Notes: generated by a model from the sequence alone, not told the origin. Positions 4,876 to 13,985 are shown, numbered from the stretch's first letter. The stretch: DNA of 13,985 bases from Desulforegula conservatrix Mb1Pa (GCF_000426225.1 NZ_AUEY01000092.1:1-13985), one strand, 5' to 3'. Translations and numbers: made by a program.

Positions 4876-7386
4876 TTATTCTGAAAGAGTATCGCTTGAT
4901 GACTTGCCGGACTTCTTCAGAAGAGCTGAAACATCAATACCTGGCAGAAGCTTTGTCAACATGCCCATAAGTCCGTCAGTTGCGTTGCCTCCGCCTGCCA
5001 CAAGAACATCCGGGACAATCTTGATTTTGCCTTTTTCTATGGATGAAGAAATCAGCTCCACGATCTTGATCTGCTTGATGGCATCTTCGCCAATGGCCGC
5101 CTTCTGTTTGCTGTAGGCCTGGGCAGTCGCCTCACCTATAGCGGCAATCTTGGACGCCTCGCCGTCACCTATGGCTATCAGGCGCTTGCCTTCTCCGGCT
5201 CCTTCAAGGGCTTTTGCCTCTGCCGTACCTTCGGCAAGGGTGATCATTTCCATTTTCTTCTGGGACGCCACTTTTACCGCAATTTCCGATGCAACCAGGG
5301 TGGGCTGCTGATCCGCTGTGGCCCTCATCTTTTCCATCTCGGTTCGTTCAGCCTGGGATTTCTGCTCCATCTTGTACATTTCCTGCTGCTGTTCAGCTAT
5401 GATGCGCTTGGTCTGGGTCTGCATAAGATCTTCCGGAAGACGGATCTGGCAGATAAGGACTGATACGCATTCCACATGGTATCTCTCAAGATCTGCCCTG
5501 GCCCTTGTTTCAGCCTTTGCCTGCTCTTCGGATCTGCTCTGGAGAAAATTCATGGCTGAAGCCGTGGATGCCTGATTCCTGAACGACGAGTCTATCATAG
5601 GATGAATAACGTGTTGAATGAGGTTGTCTATGGAGCCGACCTTGGCCACCATGTATGGCGCCTGATCCGGCCTTACACGAATAACCACCTTGACTGCCAC
5701 CTGAATTGGAAAACCGTCCTTGGATATGACGGTCAACTGGTCAAAGCGGGTGTCGTCCTGATCGTCCCAGTCTATGGTGATGTTTGTGGTGTCAATGATA
5801 TACACCATAAATGCCCGGCGGTTGAGGTAATAGCGGCCAGGCCCGGCCACTTCTTCCTGAATTCCCCTGAAACCTTTTGGTACGACATATTTTTCTTTAC
5901 CCTCTTCAACGGAAGCGCCGATCTGGGTTGATCCGAGACGTTTTTTCATCTCTTCAGTGGGATCATCGCCGACGTTTGATACGACAACTCCGACCTGACC
6001 ACGCTCAATTACTGCGACATCATCGACTTCCACGCTGAACATGAATGGGTTGATGTAATATGTTCCGGGTCTGAGAACGTCAAGCTGGGGGCCACGTTGC
6101 CCCTGCTTGGACAGAAACGCTGAGCCGTCCTGATAATCATTATGGCCGGTGATGGGGCAGGCCACATATTCACGTTCAGGCAATGGAATACCGTCAAGAG
6201 CTGTGACCAGACCGACCTTGTTGGCTGCTATGACAACGGCCGGCGCGATCTGTATCTGAAAAAGATTGAGATTGATACGGTATGTTCCGGGCAGAAGCAC
6301 ATCGATCTGAGGGCCTTTCTGTCCGCCATTTTTAAGGAACGCTTCGCCATTTTCATAGTTTGAATGCCCAGGAACACTTTGTGCCAAGAGTCTGCCCATG
6401 GGTATTGGAGCTCCGTCCTGGGCTGTGACCATGCCGACTTCACCCTTGGCGATTACCACGGCCTTGGTATTGGTCACCTTGAAAAGATTTGGATGAATAC
6501 GGTAAACACCTGGAGGAAGGATTTCAGTCTGAGGCCCTTTCTGGCCCCCATTTTTGATGAAATCAGCACCTGACTGGAATGAATTGTGGCCAGCCACAAC
6601 ATTTGCGAAAATGCGGCCAGCAGGAATTGATGTGCCGTCAGCCGACTCAATTAAGCCGATCTCACCTTCGCTGATCTTGGTGGCCTTGTTTTTTGTCACC
6701 TTGAACAGATAAGGATTGATACGATAGTTTCCAGGCGGAATGATTTCAATCTGAGGCCCTTTTTGTCCTCCATTTTTGATAAATGCTTCTCCGTTCTGAA
6801 AAGATGAGTGCCCTTCCACGGCCTGGGCAAATATCTTTCCTTCAGGAATGGCCACACCGTCCACAGACTCAACAATCCCTATTTCGAAATCCTTGATTGA
6901 GGTCACTGCACCCATGGTCAGCTTGAACAGATAAGGGTTGATACGGTATTTACCCGGAGGCAGCACCTCGATCTGAGGCCCTTTCTGTCCGCCATTTTTT
7001 ATGAATGCCTCGCCGTCCTGATAGGAATTATGGCCTGCCACAACAGCGGCAAAGATATTTCCCGCAGGAATGGATGACCCGTCCACTGATTCGATCAGTC
7101 CGATTTCATTTTCCAGAATTTCTGTAAAAACGCTTTTTTTCGCCTTGTAGATAAACGGTATCAGGAAATGCAGACCAGGGCCGAGCGTCCTAGCCTGAAT
7201 ACCTACTTCATTGCCAAGCGCAACAACCCTGCCCTGGGGCATTTTCCGGCCAAACCACCGGCGCTCGATCAGGGCGATTTCATTACCTCCCACCACGACC
7301 ACAGACGCATACAGCAGAATGGCAAAACAAACTGCCAGGGCCGCATACTCCCAGTTAATCGATAAAATAAAATCAAAAAAAAACAT
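4876..7386 (-). CDS. Flotillin-family / SPFH (band-7) membrane protein with an expanded N-terminal repeat array
   Basis: 836 aa. N-terminal TM anchor (aa 12-33). C-terminal SPFH core (…GFPIQVAVKVVIRV…VSVLICQIRLPEDLMQTQTKRIIAEQQ). Flotillin-type Ala/Glu-rich coiled-coil tail (…AEGTAEAKALEGAGEGKRLIAIGDGEASKIAAIGEATAQA…). Strong RBS GGAGG 8 nt upstream of ATG 7386. Confidence 0.85.
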   Translation of the reverse strand: MFFFDFILSINWEYAALAVCFAILLYASVVVVGGNEIALIERRWFGRKMPQGRVVALGNEVGIQARTLGPGLHFLIPFIYKAKKSVFTEILENEIGLIESVDGSSIPAGNIFAAVVAGHNSYQDGEAFIKNGGQKGPQIEVLPPGKYRINPYLFKLTMGAVTSIKDFEIGIVESVDGVAIPEGKIFAQAVEGHSSFQNGEAFIKNGGQKGPQIEIIPPGNYRINPYLFKVTKNKATKISEGEIGLIESADGTSIPAGRIFANVVAGHNSFQSGADFIKNGGQKGPQTEILPPGVYRIHPNLFKVTNTKAVVIAKGEVGMVTAQDGAPIPMGRLLAQSVPGHSNYENGEAFLKNGGQKGPQIDVLLPGTYRINLNLFQIQIAPAVVIAANKVGLVTALDGIPLPEREYVACPITGHNDYQDGSAFLSKQGQRGPQLDVLRPGTYYINPFMFSVEVDDVAVIERGQVGVVVSNVGDDPTEEMKKRLGSTQIGASVEEGKEKYVVPKGFRGIQEEVAGPGRYYLNRRAFMVYIIDTTNITIDWDDQDDTRFDQLTVISKDGFPIQVAVKVVIRVRPDQAPYMVAKVGSIDNLIQHVIHPMIDSSFRNQASTASAMNFLQSRSEEQAKAETRARADLERYHVECVSVLICQIRLPEDLMQTQTKRIIAEQQQEMYKMEQKSQAERTEMEKMRATADQQPTLVASEIAVKVASQKKMEMITLAEGTAEAKALEGAGEGKRLIAIGDGEASKIAAIGEATAQAYSKQKAAIGEDAIKQIKIVELISSSIEKGKIKIVPDVLVAGGGNATDGLMGMLTKLLPGIDVSALLKKSGKSSSDTLSE
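5776..7107 (-). repeat. Six in-frame tandem 222-nt (74-aa) coding repeats inside the flotillin gene
   Basis: Repeat starts at aa 94, 168, 242, 316, 390 and 464 (E[IV]G[LIMV][IV].[SA].DG..IP.G.IFA..V.GH..[YF]Q.G.AF[IL]KNGGQKGPQ.[ED][VI]LPPG.YRINP.LF). The DNA-level repeat is visible: cctttctgtccgccattttt at 6314 and 6980, exactly 3x222 apart. Similarity decays from copy 1 to copy 6. A shorter degenerate copy 0 lies at aa 36-90. Confidence 0.85.
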
Positions 7387-8630: not shown

Positions 8631-9728
8631 ATGAAAGAAAAAAATCAGAAACCTATCTGGTTCAAGGAAGACGGCATTGTCTGCGCCATTGATCAGAGGC
8701 GGTTGCCCCATGAGTTTACCGTTCTTGAACTTAAAACCGTAGACGATGTAATCCACGCCCTAAAGACAATGGTTGTCAGGGGCGCTCCTTTGATTGGTCT
8801 CAGTGGCGCATGGGGAGTTTATATCGCTGTCTTTTCTGCTCCTGTTTCTGAAAACAGGGAAGAATATATAAAGTCAGAATGCCTCAGGGTAAAAAACGCA
8901 AGGCCTACGGCCGTCAATCTCGCATGGGCTGTTGATATGTGTCTTGAAGCAGTTCTTGAGGAAAAAGATCCTGCTTCCCAGCTAAGAATTGCAAAGGAGA
9001 AAGCTCTCTGGGTTGATGATTATGAATCAGAAAACTGCCGAAAAATAGGCGTTAACGGACTGGATATCATTAAAAAGATTTCAGAGGCAAAAAAAGGAAA
9101 GACAGTAAATATCCTCACCCACTGCAACGCAGGCTGGCTTGCATGCATTGCCCACGGTACGGCAACAGCTCCTGTCTACGCTGCATTTGACGCTGGAATC
9201 GATGTGCATGTCTGGGTGGATGAGACTCGTCCTTTAAATCAAGGCTCAAGGCTGACAGCGTGGGAGCTTGGTAAGCACGGAGTAAAGCATACTGTGATAG
9301 CAGATAATACCGGCGGCCATCTCATGCAGCATGGAATGGTCGATATGGTCATTGTAGGCACTGACAGAACAACCCGTGCAGGAGACGTGGCAAACAAGAT
9401 AGGAACCTACCTCAAGGCTCTGGCAGCAAAGGATAACGGAATTCCATTTTATGTCGCTCTTCCTTCTTCGACCTTTGACTGGACAATCACAGACGGATTG
9501 AAAGATATTCCTATAGAAGAACGTAATCCCGATGAAATCAGATATGTGCAGGGATTTAATGACGGAAGGATAATTAGTGTCCTTGTTCCGCCCGAGAACA
9601 GTCCTGCCGCAGATTATGCCTTTGACGTAACGCCTGCAAGACTTGTTACCGGCTTTATCACTGAAAATGGCGTTTGCGGGGCAAGCGAGAAAGAAATTCT
9701 TTCATTATTTCCAGATAAAAAGAGATGA
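8631..9728 (+). CDS. mtnA: S-methyl-5-thioribose-1-phosphate isomerase (eIF-2B alpha/beta/delta-like family)
   Basis: 365 aa. RGAPLIG, THCNAGWLAC (catalytic Cys) and VGTDRTTRAGDVANKIGTY (catalytic Asp) match MtnA signatures. RBS AGGA 9 nt upstream. Confidence 0.82.
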   Translation: MKEKNQKPIWFKEDGIVCAIDQRRLPHEFTVLELKTVDDVIHALKTMVVRGAPLIGLSGAWGVYIAVFSAPVSENREEYIKSECLRVKNARPTAVNLAWAVDMCLEAVLEEKDPASQLRIAKEKALWVDDYESENCRKIGVNGLDIIKKISEAKKGKTVNILTHCNAGWLACIAHGTATAPVYAAFDAGIDVHVWVDETRPLNQGSRLTAWELGKHGVKHTVIADNTGGHLMQHGMVDMVIVGTDRTTRAGDVANKIGTYLKALAAKDNGIPFYVALPSSTFDWTITDGLKDIPIEERNPDEIRYVQGFNDGRIISVLVPPENSPAADYAFDVTPARLVTGFITENGVCGASEKEILSLFPDKKR

Positions 9729-9930
9729 TTTAAAATGATTTTGGTTCTGTTTTATTTTCGTTTGCGAGAGCCTTCGGCGAGTCGCTTTTTAAAAAAGCTC
9801 CGCAAAAACTTTATGCTTATGTGTTTTAGCGAATAAATTATGCAAGCATAGCTTGGAAACGCCAATTTTTTCGTTCCTAAAAATAAGACTGAAAATAGAG
9901 CATAGCCACGAAAATAATTTTGGGTTGTTT

Positions 9931-9990
9931 CAGGAAGTGCGCCGGTGAGCGGAAAACAACCCGGTGCACTTCCTTATTGTTTTTTAACAG
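9931..9990 (+). terminator. Strong plus-strand intrinsic terminator ~200 nt downstream of mtnA
   Basis: ggaagtgcgccgg / ccggtgcacttcc form a 13-bp stem (one G·U), with loop tgagcggaaaacaac, followed by TTATTGTTTTTT. The reverse strand has no T-run, so it acts on the plus strand only. Confidence 0.55.
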
Positions 9991-10006
9991 AAGGAGAGGG
10001 AATCTG

Positions 10007-10894
10007 TTAAAAAATGTAAGTATATCTTGCTCCGAAACGGCTTGTTTTTGAGCCGTTTTCCACGCTCAAGTCTTCGAGGTACTGGAGAAGAAGTCTTTGT
10101 TTTGGCGCCGGTGTAACTCCAAGTGTAAACTGAAGAGAGTGGGTTTCAGCCTCATCATCCATTGCGACATCTGCCACTGTGGTTTCCCCGCCTTTTTTGT
10201 AATAGTGGTCGAGTGAAACAAGCACGGTTTTGCTTATGTCATAGCTAAGATGGGTTTCCATTGCGAATGTCGGATCTTTTTCAAGAGTCGCACTGGCAGC
10301 TCCTGAATCACTGTTGTCAGTATAGAATTCAATATAAGGTGAAAGCTCAAGATAGAAATCACCCCAGCCTTTAACGAATCCAATCTCTGATTTGAAAGCC
10401 CATTGATTTGCCCCCATATTGAGGACTCTTTTATTGTCATACTCACCCAGCGGCATCTTGAACCATTCAGTTATACCAAGCCATGTTTTTGTCTCCGGAT
10501 TACTGATGGGCCATATGCCTGCAAGGATTGTGGGGTCTGCGAGTCCTGACGAAGAAAACGATTTGTTGCCTACGCTGGTACCGTCAACTGTTATGTCTCC
10601 AAATGGTATTAGGGCCTGGATTGTCGCAGGCATGGAAGCAAGGGTAGTGTAATAGACGGGCCTGAATATCTGGGTATTTGCTGAAAGATTGAAGTCGTCA
10701 GCAACCTTGTCGCCATCTTTGTATTTTTCAAAACCCGAAGTGTGCCAGTAATAAAAAAGAACGCCAACCGTATCAGCCGGTGCAGGAATATATCCCCTTG
10801 TGTCACCAGCCATTGAGGCTGTCCACGTTGTAGCAAGGATAAGGGTGGATAACAGGAACGATTTTGTGAAAGACGTAAATTTATTTCTGGCCAT
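10007..10894 (-). CDS. Outer-membrane beta-barrel protein (possibly MetA-pathway/phenol-degradation-like transporter family; family uncertain)
   Basis: 295 aa. Cleavable signal peptide (…ATTWTASMA/GD). Alternating amphipathic strands. C-terminus …GARYTYIF ends in Phe, the beta-barrel signature. RBS AGAGGAG 7 nt upstream. Confidence 0.6.
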   Translation of the reverse strand: MARNKFTSFTKSFLLSTLILATTWTASMAGDTRGYIPAPADTVGVLFYYWHTSGFEKYKDGDKVADDFNLSANTQIFRPVYYTTLASMPATIQALIPFGDITVDGTSVGNKSFSSSGLADPTILAGIWPISNPETKTWLGITEWFKMPLGEYDNKRVLNMGANQWAFKSEIGFVKGWGDFYLELSPYIEFYTDNSDSGAASATLEKDPTFAMETHLSYDISKTVLVSLDHYYKKGGETTVADVAMDDEAETHSLQFTLGVTPAPKQRLLLQYLEDLSVENGSKTSRFGARYTYIF

Positions 10895-11462
10895 GTAATA
10901 CTCCTCTCTTGAATTCTGGTTTGTTTAAGTTTCAATCAAATTGTTATCATCCGAATGATTTGGACAGGCCTGTATAGTCAGGCCTGATTTTTCCTTGGAT
11001 TGGAAACCGATTTAGTTGCTTAATTAGCCCGGTTTTTTATGTGAATAAGACTGATGCTCGACGCCGGTTTTATCGTCTGTAAAAAAAATCAAAATCCAGG
11101 AAGGAGATTGAGGTTGTTTTATGCAAACGGTGTTTTGTTTACAGACAATAATAAACTTAGCAATACGCATGCCGGATTAAAGTGAATGAAGCAATTTATA
11201 CTTTTTAATCATAAAAAGCCATACTAAAGCCCGCTTTTATAAGTCTGTATAGGCTATGGGCATATTCGGAAAAACGTTGCGAATAGATTTGTCACGTTGT
11301 TTTGTCGCCATATGGTTATTTATTGTCGTATTATTAGACAGAAGAGGGTTGAGATATTTGGAATAATAGAATGCTATTTTCCATAAAGCGATTAAATCTC
11401 TAATGAGATGTAAAGGTGTTATGGGTAACTGAAAAGATTGGATGCAGGATCAATCAAGTCCT

Positions 11463-11493
11463 TTTTAGTTTTTTTTGCGAGTCCATCAGATAC
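11463..11493 (+). repeat. ~30-nt intergenic motif, copy B (see 535-564)
   Basis: cctttttagttttttttgcgagtccatcagatact. Confidence 0.45.
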
Positions 11494-11502
11494 TTCAGGT
11501 TT

Positions 11503-11524
11503 CCGGCCTGCGCCGGAATGACGG
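11503..11524. repeat. Near-palindromic GC-rich core, copy 2 (see 1221-1241)
   Basis: ccggcctgcgccggaatgacgg. Confidence 0.45.
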
Positions 11525-11550
11525 TAATAGGACTGTCAGGATTGATAAAT

Positions 11551-11583
11551 AAAAAAAGCCCTGCCTTTACAGCAGGGCTTTTT
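11551..11583. terminator. Bidirectional intrinsic terminator downstream of dsrC copy 1
   Basis: AAAAAAA-gccctgc-ctttaca-gcagggc-TTTTT. Perfect 7-9 bp GC stem with an A-run on one side and a T-run on the other. It terminates minus-strand dsrC and any plus-strand transcript. Confidence 0.7.
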
Positions 11584-11623
11584 AAAATCTGATATTCAAA
11601 CAGATTCAACTAAAACAATCTGG

Positions 11624-11944
11624 CTATACGCAACCGGTTGGTTTTGGGAGACCAGCCATTTTGCAAGCTCCTTTTCCTGGTCCTGAAGGGAACAGTTCAT
11701 AGATGTGCTTAAGCTTGAAACCTGTGAGTTTTGAAAGAACGCGAACCATTGGTGCAATGCCGTTCTTCTTGTAGTAATCCTGAAGAACGTTAATTACCTG
11801 CCAATGTTCGTCAGAAAGAGTTTCGATACCTTCTTCCTTTTTGCAGTAATCAACCCACTCTGCAGTGTAGGTATTGAAATCTTCGAGGAAACCATCCTCA
11901 TCAACTACGAACGTCTTGCCCTGAAAATCTACATTTGTTGCCAT
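11624..11944 (-). CDS. dsrC: DsrC (dissimilatory sulfite reductase gamma subunit, sulfur-carrier protein)
   Basis: 106 aa ending …IAPMVRVLSKLTGFKLKHIYELFPSGPGKGACKMAGLPKPTGCV. Both conserved C-terminal-arm cysteines (CysB 11 residues before CysA, CysA penultimate) are present, which distinguishes true DsrC from TusE. RBS AAAGGAGAG 5 nt upstream. Only 12 nt separates it from the upstream IscA-like gene. Confidence 0.93.
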   Translation of the reverse strand: MATNVDFQGKTFVVDEDGFLEDFNTYTAEWVDYCKKEEGIETLSDEHWQVINVLQDYYKKNGIAPMVRVLSKLTGFKLKHIYELFPSGPGKGACKMAGLPKPTGCV

Positions 11945-11956
11945 GATCTCTCCTTT

Positions 11957-12280
11957 TTAGTTGCTGCCGCATGAGCTTCCGCAGCTGCAGCCAGAGCATC
12001 CGCCACTTTCAAACTTCATGGGCGAGTTCACAGAAAAACCGTCCGCTTCTGTGAATTCAACGGATATTGGCTGAGCAGCAGCAAAAAACTCTTTTTCAAT
12101 TATATAGGTTATATCTTCTATTTTTATGACCTCGTCGCCTTCGCTGAGTTCATCAAAAGCCATAGCTATCTGTGGGCCACCACATCCTCCGGAATGGAGA
12201 AAAATTCTTACAGGAGCCGCGTCCCTGTTTTCAAGAAAAATTTTTATCTGTTTTGTGGCAGCTGGTGTAACAGTTAACAT
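11957..12280 (-). CDS. IscA/HesB-family (A-type Fe-S carrier-like) protein with a C-terminal Cys/Gly/Ser-rich extension
   Basis: 107 aa from ATG 12278-12280 (RBS AGGAAA 7 nt upstream; the track's longer ORF begins at a TTG with no RBS). Aligns to IscA: LTVTPAATKQIKIFLENR ~ ITLSDSAAARVNTFLANR; HSGGCGGPQIAMAFDE ~ TSGCSGMAYVLEF; tail …ESGGCSGCSCGSSCGSN replaces the canonical CGCGESF. Confidence 0.62.
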   Translation of the reverse strand: MLTVTPAATKQIKIFLENRDAAPVRIFLHSGGCGGPQIAMAFDELSEGDEVIKIEDITYIIEKEFFAAAQPISVEFTEADGFSVNSPMKFESGGCSGCSCGSSCGSN

Positions 12281-12545
12281 TTTGTTTCCTGATATCGGAT
12301 AGTTGTTAAAAACCTTGGCACCAGGGTGCTTCAGGAATGAATCCAAGAACTCTTACACTATTTATTTCTGAATGCAAACAATATATGCCTTTATAGCTCA
12401 TGACTCTTTGAAAAAAATGAATAACCCGGATAATTTAAGTGTTTGTCTTTCTAAAAATGGCCACTGGCATTCAAATATGTATTTAAGAATCATTCATCCA
12501 TTACCATGCCCGTGTTATTGAATACGGATTGAGCATCTATCGGTT

Positions 12546-13604
12546 TTATTCCATAGGAACAGTGCCGTCCTTGCTTTTTTTCATTTTTTCCATAAATGCG
12601 TCCGGGGATAGCTTTAAGACTTTTTTCCTTGCATCTTCTTCCTCTGCTTTTACCTTGGCATTTCTTTCAGATTCTTCAATTTTGATGGCTTCTGTATCAA
12701 ACTCTTTTATCAGCTTTGCTATTTGAGGATCTTCAGGCATTTCAAGGGCAAGTGTAATATTTTCAAGTGTACAAGATTCGGGGATATTTTTTTCATTCAA
12801 ATGTATTTTTAACATTCCGATACTTTCGCCGGACATGCTGTTTTGCACCATATAAGTATTTTTGATAAGTCTGGGCTCGAAGCTCAAATGCCGTCCATGC
12901 CCTGCTATTGCTACAAAAACTTTTTCCAGATCATTCATTTCCAGATAGTTTTTTGTCGCGTCGTCTCCCAGATGGGAAAGCAGAATTGAAAAATCTGCTT
13001 TCTTGTTCATTTCGGAAAGGGCTTTCTGCAATGCTCCATTCATGTCTCTATTAATTGAAACTTCTTTATTGATTGCTTCATCAGTAAAATATATGGAAGG
13101 AGTGATGCCTGTAATGCCAACTTTTAATCCGTTTAAATTAATGATTTTATATGGTTGGATGATATTGCCTTCATTTTTGCTTTTTTCTTCAGGTAAGCTT
13201 ATATTGGCTGATACAAAGGGCAGTGAATTCTTTTTCGCAATCCCAGTGAAAAACTGTTTGCCAAACCCAAGATCATAATCACCGATATTGACGGCGTCGT
13301 ATTTCATTATACCCATTGCCGTTGCTATGGTTTTGGCCCTTAGCTCGCCCGGGTTTTTATTTTTAAGAAACATGTCACCGCAATCAAGAACCAGAACGTT
13401 TTCGTTTTCCTTGCGGATTTTTTCAATAAATGCCGCCCTTCTTGATATACCGCCCTTTCTAGGGCTGCAACCACATGGCTCAATGGATCCGGCTGTGTCA
13501 CCTGAAAACAAAATAACAAGATCATTAGACTTTGCATACGACGGGGCTTGAAAAATTAATAAGCATAAGGCTGACAGCGCGGACAGGATAATCATTTTTT
13601 TCAT
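12546..13604 (-). CDS. Secreted 5'-nucleotidase/SoxB-family metallophosphatase N-terminal domain only, with degenerate active-site motifs and a K/E-rich C-terminal tail
   Basis: 352 aa. Signal peptide (…IFQAPSYA/KS). Aligns motif-by-motif to the UshA N-domain: ILFSGDTAGS (vs NDHHGH), VLDCGDMF (vs SGGDIN), AVNIGDYDLGFG (vs AIGNHEFDN), LPFVSANISL (vs PLLSANIYQ), LSHLG (vs ATHMG), IAGHGRH (vs VGGHSQD). An EPCGCS insert follows motif I. RBS AGGAGAAAGG. GC content is visibly lower than in neighbouring genes. Confidence 0.62.
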   Translation of the reverse strand: MKKMIILSALSALCLLIFQAPSYAKSNDLVILFSGDTAGSIEPCGCSPRKGGISRRAAFIEKIRKENENVLVLDCGDMFLKNKNPGELRAKTIATAMGIMKYDAVNIGDYDLGFGKQFFTGIAKKNSLPFVSANISLPEEKSKNEGNIIQPYKIINLNGLKVGITGITPSIYFTDEAINKEVSINRDMNGALQKALSEMNKKADFSILLSHLGDDATKNYLEMNDLEKVFVAIAGHGRHLSFEPRLIKNTYMVQNSMSGESIGMLKIHLNEKNIPESCTLENITLALEMPEDPQIAKLIKEFDTEAIKIEESERNAKVKAEEEDARKKVLKLSPDAFMEKMKKSKDGTVPME

Positions 13605-13670
13605 GGAAGACCTTTCTCCTATAATATGTTTTGTTAGCCAAGTGAAGGAACTTGGTTGCAGCTCTCCCGA

Positions 13671-13712
13671 ATAAAAAAGGATATTTTCCGTTTATAGAAA
13701 AATATCCCTCTT
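13671..13712 (-). terminator. Intrinsic terminator of dsrC copy 2 (minus strand)
   Basis: On the minus strand: ggatatttttc-tataaacg-gaaaatatcc followed by TTTTTT (plus-strand A-run 13673-13678). It sits 40-80 nt after the dsrC-2 stop. Confidence 0.65.
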
Positions 13713-13752
13713 TTAATTTAAATCCGAGCTTTCATGAACAGATTTTCTTAAC

Positions 13753-13985
13753 TATACGCAACCTGTCGGTTTTGGAAGTCCGGCCATTTTGCAAGCTCCC
13801 TTTCCTGGTCCTGACGGGAACAGTTCATAGATGTGCTTAAGCTTGAAACCTGTGAGTTTTGAAAGAACGCGAACCATTGGTGCAATGCCGTTCTTCTTGT
13901 AGTAGTCCTGAAGAACGTTAATTACCTGCCAATGTTCGTCAGAAAGAGTTTCGATACCTTCTTCCTTCTTGCAGTAATCAACCCA
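13753..13985 (-). CDS. dsrC: Second dsrC copy (3' 77 codons; the 5' end lies beyond the window)
   Basis: Stop at 13753-13755 (cta on plus). Translates …VDYCKKEEGIETLSDEHWQVINVLQDYYKKNGIAPMVRVLSKLTGFKLKHIYELFPSGPGKGACKMAGLPKPTGCV, identical in protein to copy 1 over the visible part. 13822-13985 is ~99% identical in DNA to 11688-11851. It is not in the ORF track because no start codon lies in the window. Confidence 0.9.

Follow-up and report, generated by a model that had tools for sequence, protein, structure and literature searches.

Two dsrC copies and a HesB/IscA-like gene in Desulforegula conservatrix and their probable relation to Hdr/Flx-type operons

Introduction

How DsrC is re-reduced, and what soluble Hdr/Flx-type enzymes contribute beside the membrane-bound complex DsrMKJOP, is an active question in the bioenergetics of sulfate reducers, of which Desulforegula conservatrix is a described member. 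This species has been placed in the Desulfobacteraceae (PMC11887813). One of its contigs (NZ_AUEY01000092.1; 13,985 nucleotides (nt), analysed at its full length and called the window in the following) carries near its right end a dsrC gene directly behind a gene for a HesB/IscA-like protein, then a gene for a putatively exported UshA/5'-nucleotidase-like protein and the 3' part of a second dsrC. This raises the question why dsrC should be present twice, and in such a neighbourhood. In a preliminary description of the window it was proposed that DsrC, the HesB-like protein and the exported protein, then taken for a relative of SoxB, form one module for the trafficking of sulfur or metal-sulfur groups that is attached to the Dsr pathway.

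Here, we arrive at a different explanation, which we hold with moderate confidence: the locus consists of two HesB-like/dsrC bicistrons and a separate gene for the exported UshA-like protein. According to this explanation, dsrC was recruited behind the HesB-like gene that ends an Hdr/Flx-type operon, and the pair of genes was then duplicated. The locus is a lineage-specific variant of a known theme and not a new sulfur-trafficking system.

Organization of the locus

The two dsrC genes are called dsrC-1 and dsrC-2, the HesB/IscA-like gene of the window HesB-like-1 and the gene for the exported protein UshA-like. The features of the locus are the following.

11553..11583, minus strand: terminator after dsrC-1, a 13-base-pair (bp) G+C-rich stem with 6 G-C pairs, then a T-run
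11624..11944, minus strand: dsrC-1, full-length, 106 amino acids (aa); PF04358, TIGR03342
11945..11956, minus strand: spacer aaaggagagatc, 12 nt from the stop of HesB-like-1 to the start of dsrC-1, with the ribosome-binding site aaaGGAGagatc
11957..12280, minus strand: HesB/IscA-like gene, copy 1, 107 aa; NF038090
12281..12389, minus strand: conserved upstream block of about 105 nt, directly 5' of HesB-like-1 and nearly invariant in relatives
12546..13604, minus strand: UshA/5'-nucleotidase-like gene, cysteine form, 352 aa; NF041198
13467..13475, minus strand: CGC motif (C44-G45-C46) of the UshA-like protein, with C46 aligned to the selenocysteine of homologues
13673..13713, minus strand: terminator after dsrC-2, an A+T-rich 17-bp hairpin and a U-run
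13752..13985, minus strand: dsrC-2, 3' part only, 77 codons and the stop, cut by the contig end; PF04358

From the listing of open reading frames (ORFs) and the reverse-strand sequence, the order on the minus strand is partial dsrC-2, a 147-nt gap with a hairpin, UshA-like, a 265-nt gap, HesB-like-1, the 12-nt spacer, dsrC-1 and a terminator. The gene calls and the order given in the preliminary description were correct, and every feature was found where it had been placed. By exact look-up, the window proteins are WP_027360435, WP_027360436 and WP_027360437, with WP_027360435.1 as the product of dsrC-1. The start codon of HesB-like-1 is the ATG that is used by every homologue in the alignment. 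The window is the entire contig; its right end falls inside the dsrC repeat, and the contig stops there because assemblers break at this repeat.

Both dsrC copies encode bona fide DsrC, as is evident from the domain and from the C-terminal arm with its CysB-X10-CysA pattern, which they share with DsrC of other sulfate reducers. The product of dsrC-1 matches PF04358 over residues 7-106 (E = 1.6e-35, 122 bits) and TIGR03342 with 112 bits (cut-off 53.5), but the TusE equivalog NF008562 with only 63.8 bits (cut-off 191); the partial dsrC-2 matches PF04358 with E = 9.7e-28. In the arm ACKMAGLPKPTGCV, CysB is C94 and CysA is C105 of 106 residues, and the arm of dsrC-2 is identical. DsrC of other Desulfobacteraceae shares more than 90% identity with both copies. 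In contrast to a lone, monocistronic dsrC, at least two copies are present here, and each is apparently coupled translationally, by way of the 12-nt spacer, to a HesB-like gene upstream.

The spacer in front of dsrC-1 is the same in L005, L006 and L010 and has one change in L007 and L008 (L-numbers denote loci or contigs of relatives, P-numbers homologous proteins). A spacer of 12-15 nt between HesB-like gene and dsrC is found at both pairs and in at least ten independent contigs of the clade, so that the tight coupling of the two genes described before could be confirmed, and co-transcription of HesB-like gene and dsrC is to be expected. As also described before, each dsrC is followed by a terminator of its own (hairpins at 11553..11583 and 13673..13713). 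The sequence of the first one also follows the dsrC copy in L010; the second one folds with -22.6 kcal/mol (z = -2.55 versus shuffles) and has a homologous hairpin after dsrC-2 in L007 and L009.

The block of about 105 nt in front of HesB-like-1 is nearly invariant in the window, L005 and L006, although the UshA-like coding sequence is only 75-85% identical in the same relatives; outside the block, the 265 nt between the two genes could not be aligned. This suggests that the block is a dedicated promoter and 5'-untranslated region of the HesB-like-1/dsrC-1 pair. A promoter scan revealed no convincing sigma-70 site in the block, and an Rfam scan of 9500-13985 gave only sub-threshold matches, located on the dsrC-1 terminator, and none in the block. 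The Rex operator TTGTGAAN6TTCACAA, searched with up to 3 mismatches, had chance-level matches elsewhere only and none in the block.

HesB-like-1, UshA-like and dsrC are all under purifying selection, with ratios of nonsynonymous to synonymous substitution rates (dN/dS) of 0.14-0.17 for HesB-like-1, 0.06-0.13 for UshA-like and at most 0.014 for dsrC. The synonymous divergence (dS) of the window from relatives is 0.24 and 0.65 for HesB-like-1, as compared to 0.65 and 2.4 for UshA-like, and that of dsrC is also much lower than that of UshA-like. The low dS of HesB-like-1 and dsrC suggests strong codon constraint from high expression or, alternatively, recombination of the unit among strains.

A HesB-like gene also precedes dsrC-2 in close relatives

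The region upstream of dsrC-2 was read from close relatives. L007, a metagenomic contig of 3.5 kb with 87% nt identity to the window over dsrC-2 and UshA-like, has the order AsrA/HydB-like 4Fe-4S protein, AsrB/HydG-like FAD/NAD/2Fe-2S protein, a second HesB-like gene (HesB-like-2, tail GGGCSSCGTTGSCCSN), a 12-nt spacer, dsrC and UshA-like. The succession AsrB/HydG-like, HesB-like-2, 12-15-nt spacer and dsrC is seen in L007 and L066-L068, L009 has HesB-like-2 and then dsrC, and L065 and L069 have the same order of these two genes behind a partial ORF that was not identified. In L008 and L065, no UshA-like gene is present downstream of HesB-like-2 and dsrC. In L007, HesB-like-2 begins 42 nt past the AsrB-like gene; because of this short distance it is probably co-transcribed with the Hdr/Flx-type genes.

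In a neighbour-joining tree, HesB-like-1 and HesB-like-2 are sister branches with 58-63% identity, copy 1 being the more diverged one. Since a HesB-like gene but no second UshA-like gene precedes dsrC-2 in these relatives, the duplicated unit is the HesB-like/dsrC pair. The preliminary description had considered a tandem duplication of a three-gene unit, with another IscA-like and another 5'-nucleotidase-like gene in front of dsrC-2. Only the first of these is there in the relatives; it is preceded by the AsrB/HydG-like and AsrA/HydB-like genes and not by a second UshA-like gene, which speaks against a three-gene unit. Judged by its close relatives, D. conservatrix itself should also have HesB-like-2 upstream of dsrC-2.

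HesB-like genes are linked to Hdr-type genes

The context of HesB-like genes was surveyed by a scan with a HesB-like alignment, using one genome per species. This gave 50 loci, all from Desulfobacterales except for a few metagenome-assembled genomes (MAGs) of Desulfovibrionales type and MAGs unclassified below phylum or class. Clustering, Pfam/NCBIfam profiles and blastp revealed a full operon in 15 of them, encoding a HdrA2-like protein of about 1025 aa, MvhD/VhuD, a 315-aa FeS protein, a sulfhydrogenase-beta (HydB/ShyB/AsrA)-like protein, a sulfhydrogenase-gamma (HydG/AsrB)-like protein and, as the last one, the HesB-like protein. AsrA-like and AsrB-like genes are located immediately upstream of the HesB-like gene in 19/50 loci (tblastn). 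At about 12 further loci, the HesB-like gene is flanked by a gene for a HmcF/TmcB/DsrK-like CCG protein, often together with genes for a 2-hydroxyacyl-CoA-dehydratase-like protein and an activase; CCG proteins of this kind occur only in this second type of context. This distribution points to Hdr-type enzymes as the partners of the HesB-like family, whose role could be that of an Fe-S carrier or that of a cysteine/selenocysteine relay. A linkage of HesB-like genes to Hdr-type genes (HdrA, DsrK/HmcF/TmcB) was not found described in the literature searched. No conserved RNA or DNA motif was seen upstream of the HesB-like genes across the 50 loci.

Within 8 kb of the HesB-like gene, neither dsrC (0/50) nor a UshA-like gene (0/50) was detected by tblastn. 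The side-by-side placement of dsrC, IscA-like and 5'-nucleotidase-like genes, on which the preliminary description had built, therefore does not extend beyond the clade. At the level of the family, HesB-like genes are thus regularly present without dsrC, a finding that the preliminary description itself had named as evidence against its proposal. In L034, the nearest genome (91% identity of the AsrB-like protein), the operon is complete but dsrC is absent; the attachment of dsrC is therefore recent and clade-specific.

The HesB-like protein

HesB-like-1 scores 98.5 bits against NF038090 (IscA_HesB_Se), above the cut-off of 85, and copy 2 of L007 scores 95.6 bits. NF038090 is related to TIGR01911 and is a branch of the A-type carriers (IscA/SufA/ErpA), and the window protein shares with it the [C/U]xGP motif at the first ligand cysteine. 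In line with this, the profile of the HesB-like family matches solved A-type carriers, aq_1857 with E = 1e-13 and also HI1723, IscA and SufA. The cysteines of HesB-like-1 are C33, which is the selenocysteine position of the family, C95, C98, C100 and C104, and its tail reads GGCSGCSCGSSCGSN. C33 (in GGCGGP), C95 and C98 are invariant in 9 aligned sequences, and copy 1 adds C98-S-C100, a CxC pattern. The window protein is thus a cysteine form that differs from the A-type carriers in having an invariant C-terminal CxxC and further cysteines rather than the canonical CGC. The Cys-rich tail that had caught attention before is indeed present; however, it aligns with the CxC region of aq_1857 and ErpA, that is, it overlaps the canonical ligand region of A-type carriers and is a trait of the family, not a peculiarity of this gene.

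The family has been catalogued as the selenoprotein family UxGP, of unknown function (PMC13188914, PMC1794560). The codon for C33 is TGA in L053, L054 and L061, and selenocysteine in place of C33 in some homologues suggests a reactive, probably redox-active residue. The three loci contain tandem HesB-like pairs (L053:1323-2089, L054:8001-8776, L061:4643-5320), with one copy each in the TGA form. At the other end of the protein, the HesB-like frame of L018, L019, L023, L024, L027 and L028 ends with GSCCSD-TGA-STING-TAA, the short in-frame extension behind the TGA being conserved. This TGA could be a plain stop codon or a second selenocysteine site.

Is the HesB-like protein, then, only an Fe-S carrier that matures Hdr/Flx-type enzymes, with dsrC co-expressed as the gene for their substrate and without any contact between HesB-like protein and DsrC? 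The clear homology to A-type carriers, which includes the ligand positions C33 and the C-terminal CxxC/CxC, and the linkage to operons that encode many Fe-S proteins argue for it, as does the fact that DsrC itself, to our knowledge, has no Fe-S cluster. On the other hand, selenocysteine at the first ligand position of some members would be unusual for a simple cluster ligand, and the duplicated copy 1 travels with dsrC, apart from the Hdr-type genes. We consider a role as nothing but an Fe-S carrier as possible, but on the unlikely side. It is compatible with the explanation by two bicistrons, of which it is a sub-case.

Origin and possible function of the HesB-like/dsrC pairs

In the Desulfobacterales, the HesB-like gene (cysteine or selenocysteine in GG[C/U]GGP, Cys-rich tail) would ancestrally have been, typically, the last gene of a soluble HdrA2-like/MvhD/FeS/HydB-AsrA-like/HydG-AsrB-FlxA-like operon or, alternatively, a neighbour of a HmcF/TmcB/DsrK-like CCG protein. 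In the Desulforegula lineage, dsrC together with the ribosome-binding spacer would have been placed right behind it. The pair would later have been duplicated, the second copy gaining a conserved upstream region of its own, and in one sub-lineage UshA-like would have come to lie between the two pairs. A duplication of the pair is proposed because the HesB-like copies are sisters, copy 1 has the conserved block of about 105 nt in front of it and terminators follow both dsrC genes.

As to function, the Hdr/Flx-type complex encoded next to dsrC, which would be linked to NAD(P)H, would have DsrC as its thiol/disulfide (trisulfide) substrate and would pass electrons to it. The HesB-like protein would assist Hdr-type enzymes, be it as a dedicated Fe-S carrier or as a cysteine/selenocysteine redox relay, and the second dsrC copy would raise the dosage of a very abundant protein. 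DsrC binds FlxABCD-HdrABC directly in D. vulgaris, according to a passage in PMC10504309 that cites Ferreira et al. 2023, and in Desulfobacterium autotrophicum dsrABC follow hdrL1-mvhD (PMC2702500). With the FlxABCD-HdrABC and HdrL/MvhD-dsr clusters, for which these two sources report a functional or genomic link to DsrC, the HesB-ended operon shares HdrA-type, MvhD (FlxD)-type and NAD(P)H-binding HydG/FlxA-type subunits. It differs from them by the absence of HdrB/HdrC, the reversed gene order, the extra 315-aa FeS protein and the terminal HesB-like gene, and dsrC is attached to HesB-ended operons only in the Desulforegula clade. A connection of the locus to the redox chemistry of DsrC, as part of the earlier proposal of a module attached to the Dsr pathway, is plausible; the three-component module itself is not supported (see below).

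Desulforegula offers a natural case of dsrC appended to an Hdr/Flx-type operon, behind a HesB-like gene of a family that contains selenoproteins. This gives two leads: DsrC as a substrate of a HdrA-MvhD-sulfhydrogenase-beta/gamma-like complex and the HesB-like protein as an Hdr-associated accessory. It is tempting to speculate, although we give this idea little chance, that NF038090 proteins of Desulfobacterota are not general Fe-S assembly factors but work specifically with soluble Hdr-type enzymes (HdrA-MvhD-HydBG-like without HdrBC; HmcF/TmcB/DsrK-like), as their thiol/selenol or Fe-S relay. If so, such complexes would be able to reduce the DsrC trisulfide/disulfide in the cytoplasm, independently of DsrMKJOP, with the HesB-like protein as the adaptor that has been missing so far. 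With HesB-like NF038090 and the UshA-like PCG[U/C] proteins of NF041198, two selenoprotein families that had been orphans can now be given a genomic context. The result is an incremental one: all components belong to families that have been catalogued before, and the linkage to dsrC is confined to one genus-level clade.

Several observations weigh against the proposed recruitment and function. None of the loci with HdrA context has a gene with a CCG domain, that is HdrB/HdrC, and the operon is thus without known disulfide-reducing subunits. HdrA and MvhD were not seen directly in a Desulforegula contig, since the AsrA-like gene is already cut by the start of L007; of the operon, this clade directly shows the AsrA/HydB-like and AsrB/HydG-like genes only, and the others are deduced from L034. 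A search of the protein collection with the L007 copy did not find HesB-like-2 of the D. conservatrix type strain, which is not evidence of its absence. In 30/50 loci of the survey, the HesB-like gene is directly followed by a 167-aa ParE-like gene, in HdrA-type or HdrD-type context (e.g. L034:8479-8982, L020:8558-9052). Both look like a conserved two-gene unit, and the slot held by the ParE-like gene elsewhere is taken by dsrC in Desulforegula. Furthermore, dsrC stands at other places, too. In L011:1-916 and L012:1-922, an AsrB/HydG-like gene (97-98% nt identity to the AsrB-like gene of L007) is followed by a unique 148-nt gap and then by dsrC, without a HesB-like gene; two possibilities are a variant at the level of strains and a third dsrC locus. 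In L010:1-748, a segment of about 435 nt with 97% identity to the window, made up of the 3' end of HesB-like-1 (~20 nt), the 12-nt spacer, dsrC-1 and the terminator, lies directly behind the gene for the ATP synthase beta subunit (atpD), and both outer flanks are unlike the window. We take this as a sign of a mobile dsrC cassette, although the assembly might be chimeric. Apparently, the placement of dsrC is promiscuous in this clade, and its adjacency to HesB-like genes could be a piggy-backing on their expression.

The ParE-like domain of the 167-aa protein is weak (PF24732, 25.1 bits, cut-off 24.4). The protein was also considered as a remote relative of DsrC; this was rejected on the basis of a hhalign probability of 0.1%.

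Is the adjacency fortuitous and driven by gene dosage?

The mobility of dsrC leads to a second alternative, in which a mobile cassette of spacer, dsrC and terminator is copied behind well-expressed operons for reasons of dosage, and the HesB-like protein and DsrC have no functional link. The two copies in the window form a 234-nt direct repeat with 96% identity that begins exactly at the stop codon, with 9 differences, 9/9 of them synonymous. HesB-like-1 and HesB-like-2, in contrast, are saturated in synonymous divergence, and therefore the homogenisation or copying of dsrC is the more recent event. This points to dsrC alone having been copied, or converted, a short time ago and favours the dosage alternative. 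It is further favoured by the same spacer and dsrC behind atpD in L010, where no more than about 435 nt, terminator included, are homologous, by dsrC directly behind the AsrB-like gene (L011, L012) and behind two different HesB-like paralogues, and by the missing linkage of HesB-like genes and dsrC outside the clade (0/50 loci). However, most of the landing sites, namely the two HesB-like paralogues and the AsrB-like gene, come from one type of operon, whose relatives were proposed or shown to act on DsrC. Moreover, HesB-like-1 and dsrC-1 have stayed together, along with the conserved region in front of the pair, in lineages of 72-100% identity. Taken together, we regard a purely fortuitous adjacency as rather doubtful. 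The mobility of dsrC supports a component of dosage or piggy-backing, and it weakens, but does not remove, the case for a coupling of HesB-like protein and DsrC.

The putatively exported UshA-like protein and the proposed trafficking module

The best family match of the UshA-like protein is NF041198 (UshA_like_PCGU; COG0737 UshA-like), with 184.1 bits, below the cut-off of 275, and with profile positions 8-271 of 519 matched; the cytochrome-fused homologue P0015 passes the cut-off with 282.5 bits. By inspection, residues 1-24 look like a Sec-type signal peptide with its n-, h- and c-regions (MKK, then a hydrophobic stretch, and SYA in front of KS; MKKMIILSALSALCLLIFQAPSYA, then KS). The AlphaFold2 model (predicted local distance difference test score 86.4) has an N-terminal helix at 2-18, followed by a low-confidence linker. 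The putative signal peptide is followed by a degenerate metallophosphatase N-domain, a long charged helix and the C-terminal motif LKLSPxxFMEKMK..VP. The best folds are N-domains of 5'-nucleotidases (E. coli c4898, CD73), with E ~1e-22 and a template-modelling (TM) score of ~0.7.

The motifs of the metallophosphatases are degenerate. The alignment has D36-T-A38 in the place of DxH, without the histidine, and G-D-Y-D in that of GNHE, without the asparagine and the histidine; GD, SHLG and GHG are the sole motifs kept, and PF00149 scores 19.7, under its cut-off of 21.5. Seven residues past the degenerate DxH follows EPCG[C/U], which is conserved and reads EPCGCSP in the window protein. The metallophosphatase-like fold and the CGC motif had been recognised correctly before, and export is probable. 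In L002, L003 and L004 the motif reads EPCGU through an in-frame TGA, whereas P0015 and P0016 have EPCGC; the motif of the family is listed as CxU (PMC13188914, PMC2398784). The PCG[U/C] proteins accordingly appear to be pseudo-phosphatases with a cysteine/selenocysteine site, and the UshA-like protein would act independently in the periplasm, with this site in place of the former di-metal centre.

P0004-P0011, which seemed to be N-terminally truncated, are selenoproteins that gene callers have split at UGA, and many database entries of the family are N-terminally truncated because of such splits at TGA. Each of L002:5223-6284, L003:3647-4708 and L004:5812-6912 is one EPCGU gene that is annotated as two ORFs of ~48 aa and ~290 aa.

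The selenocysteine forms share the full architecture of signal peptide, degenerate phosphatase domain, charged helix and LKLSPxxFMEKMK..VP tail. These relatives (37-54% identity) are encoded in an operon of secreted proteins without dsrC and without a HesB-like gene. Directly in front of the UshA-like gene are genes for secreted proteins of ~215 aa and ~800 aa without NCBIfam match (L002:2138-5226, L003:589-3650, L004:2698-5811, L063:3-299), and downstream lies a convergent gene for a lipoprotein of ~147 aa. When metagenomes were scanned with the UshA-like alignment, no more than two short loci came up, and each had the secreted-protein context. This operon is the real conserved context of the UshA-like subfamily. 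With the NF041198 family the window protein shares the fold of the 5'-nucleotidase N-domain, the EPCG[C/U] motif and, to judge from its sequence, a signal peptide. It is, however, short: the C-terminal part of the profile, which in P0015-P0017 is a multihaem cytochrome domain, is missing, and the charged helix and the conserved tail are there instead. In contrast to the selenocysteine relatives it is a cysteine form and is placed between dsrC genes rather than in the secreted-protein operon.

The proposed analogy to SoxB, the basis for a SoxB-like enzyme that would process a cysteine-bound sulfur adduct on a carrier, is weak. The score against TIGR04486 is 63.6 bits (cut-off 550), and SoxB (4uwq) ranks 48th in the Foldseek search, behind 47 matches that are all 5'-nucleotidases and 2',3'-cyclic phosphodiesterases; SoxB is thus no closer than ordinary 5'-nucleotidases, and searches by sequence gave the same picture. 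Both share the superfamily fold of the metallophosphatases, and the UshA-like protein, by its putative signal peptide, would be periplasmic like SoxB. Unlike SoxB, the UshA-like protein has its di-metal ligands and the catalytic histidine replaced, it is missing the C-terminal domain, and there are no sox genes in the window.

Could DsrC, the HesB-like protein and the UshA-like protein nevertheless form one trafficking module? The four genes are contiguous and their order is conserved in the window, L001 and L005, purifying selection acts on all of them, and the three types of protein have conserved reactive cysteine motifs, two of them belonging to selenocysteine/cysteine families. However, by inspection the UshA-like protein has a putative signal peptide, whereas none was seen on DsrC or the HesB-like protein, and because of this mismatch of compartments a direct relay among the three is unlikely. 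In addition, UshA-like is bounded by a terminator upstream and the 265-nt gap downstream, its homologues occur in another operon without dsrC or HesB-like genes, HesB-like homologues are without nearby dsrC or UshA-like genes in 50/50 genomes, L008 and L065 have HesB-like-2 and dsrC without UshA-like, and no specific relationship to SoxB exists. We therefore consider such a module very unlikely and prefer two HesB-like/dsrC bicistrons with a separate UshA-like gene.

Integrity of the second dsrC

The preliminary description had noticed two near-identical dsrC copies on both sides of the HesB-like/UshA-like pair, which is borne out by the 96% identity over 234 nt, and had considered that the right-hand copy might be a truncated pseudogene, which is not the case. 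The window dsrC-2 differs from dsrC-2 of L007 and L009 at 4-5 positions in 234 nt, as compared to 9 for its own dsrC-1; it is nearer to the former, and therefore dsrC-1 and dsrC-2 are distinct, positionally orthologous genes. WP_027360296.1, encoded on another contig, is a second full-length DsrC of the same species, with D6E as sole change. Independent assemblies have dsrC on both sides of the UshA-like/HesB-like pair, namely L001 (100% identical to the window) and L005 (UshA-like 84% identical at the protein level), and L006 (UshA-like 72% identical) carries UshA-like, HesB-like gene and dsrC; this confirms that the arrangement is not an assembly artefact. That the second dsrC is an artefact or a pseudogene can practically be dismissed, although the contig ends inside it and, in every sample, contigs from short reads stop at dsrC in this region, since the copies differ at 9 positions, all synonymous, and have different downstream sequences, since dsrC-2 is the positional orthologue of the complete dsrC-2 in L007 and L009, and since the second full-length DsrC exists in the same species.

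Other genes of the window

The remaining genes of the window are unrelated housekeeping genes. An 836-aa SPFH/Band-7 protein is encoded at 4876-7386 (minus strand). It has five tandem repeats of ~75 aa N-terminal to the SPFH domain, with a consensus of roughly EIGxxESxDGxxIPxGxIFAxxVxGHxxxQxGExFIKNGGQKGPQxExLPPGxYRINPYLF.

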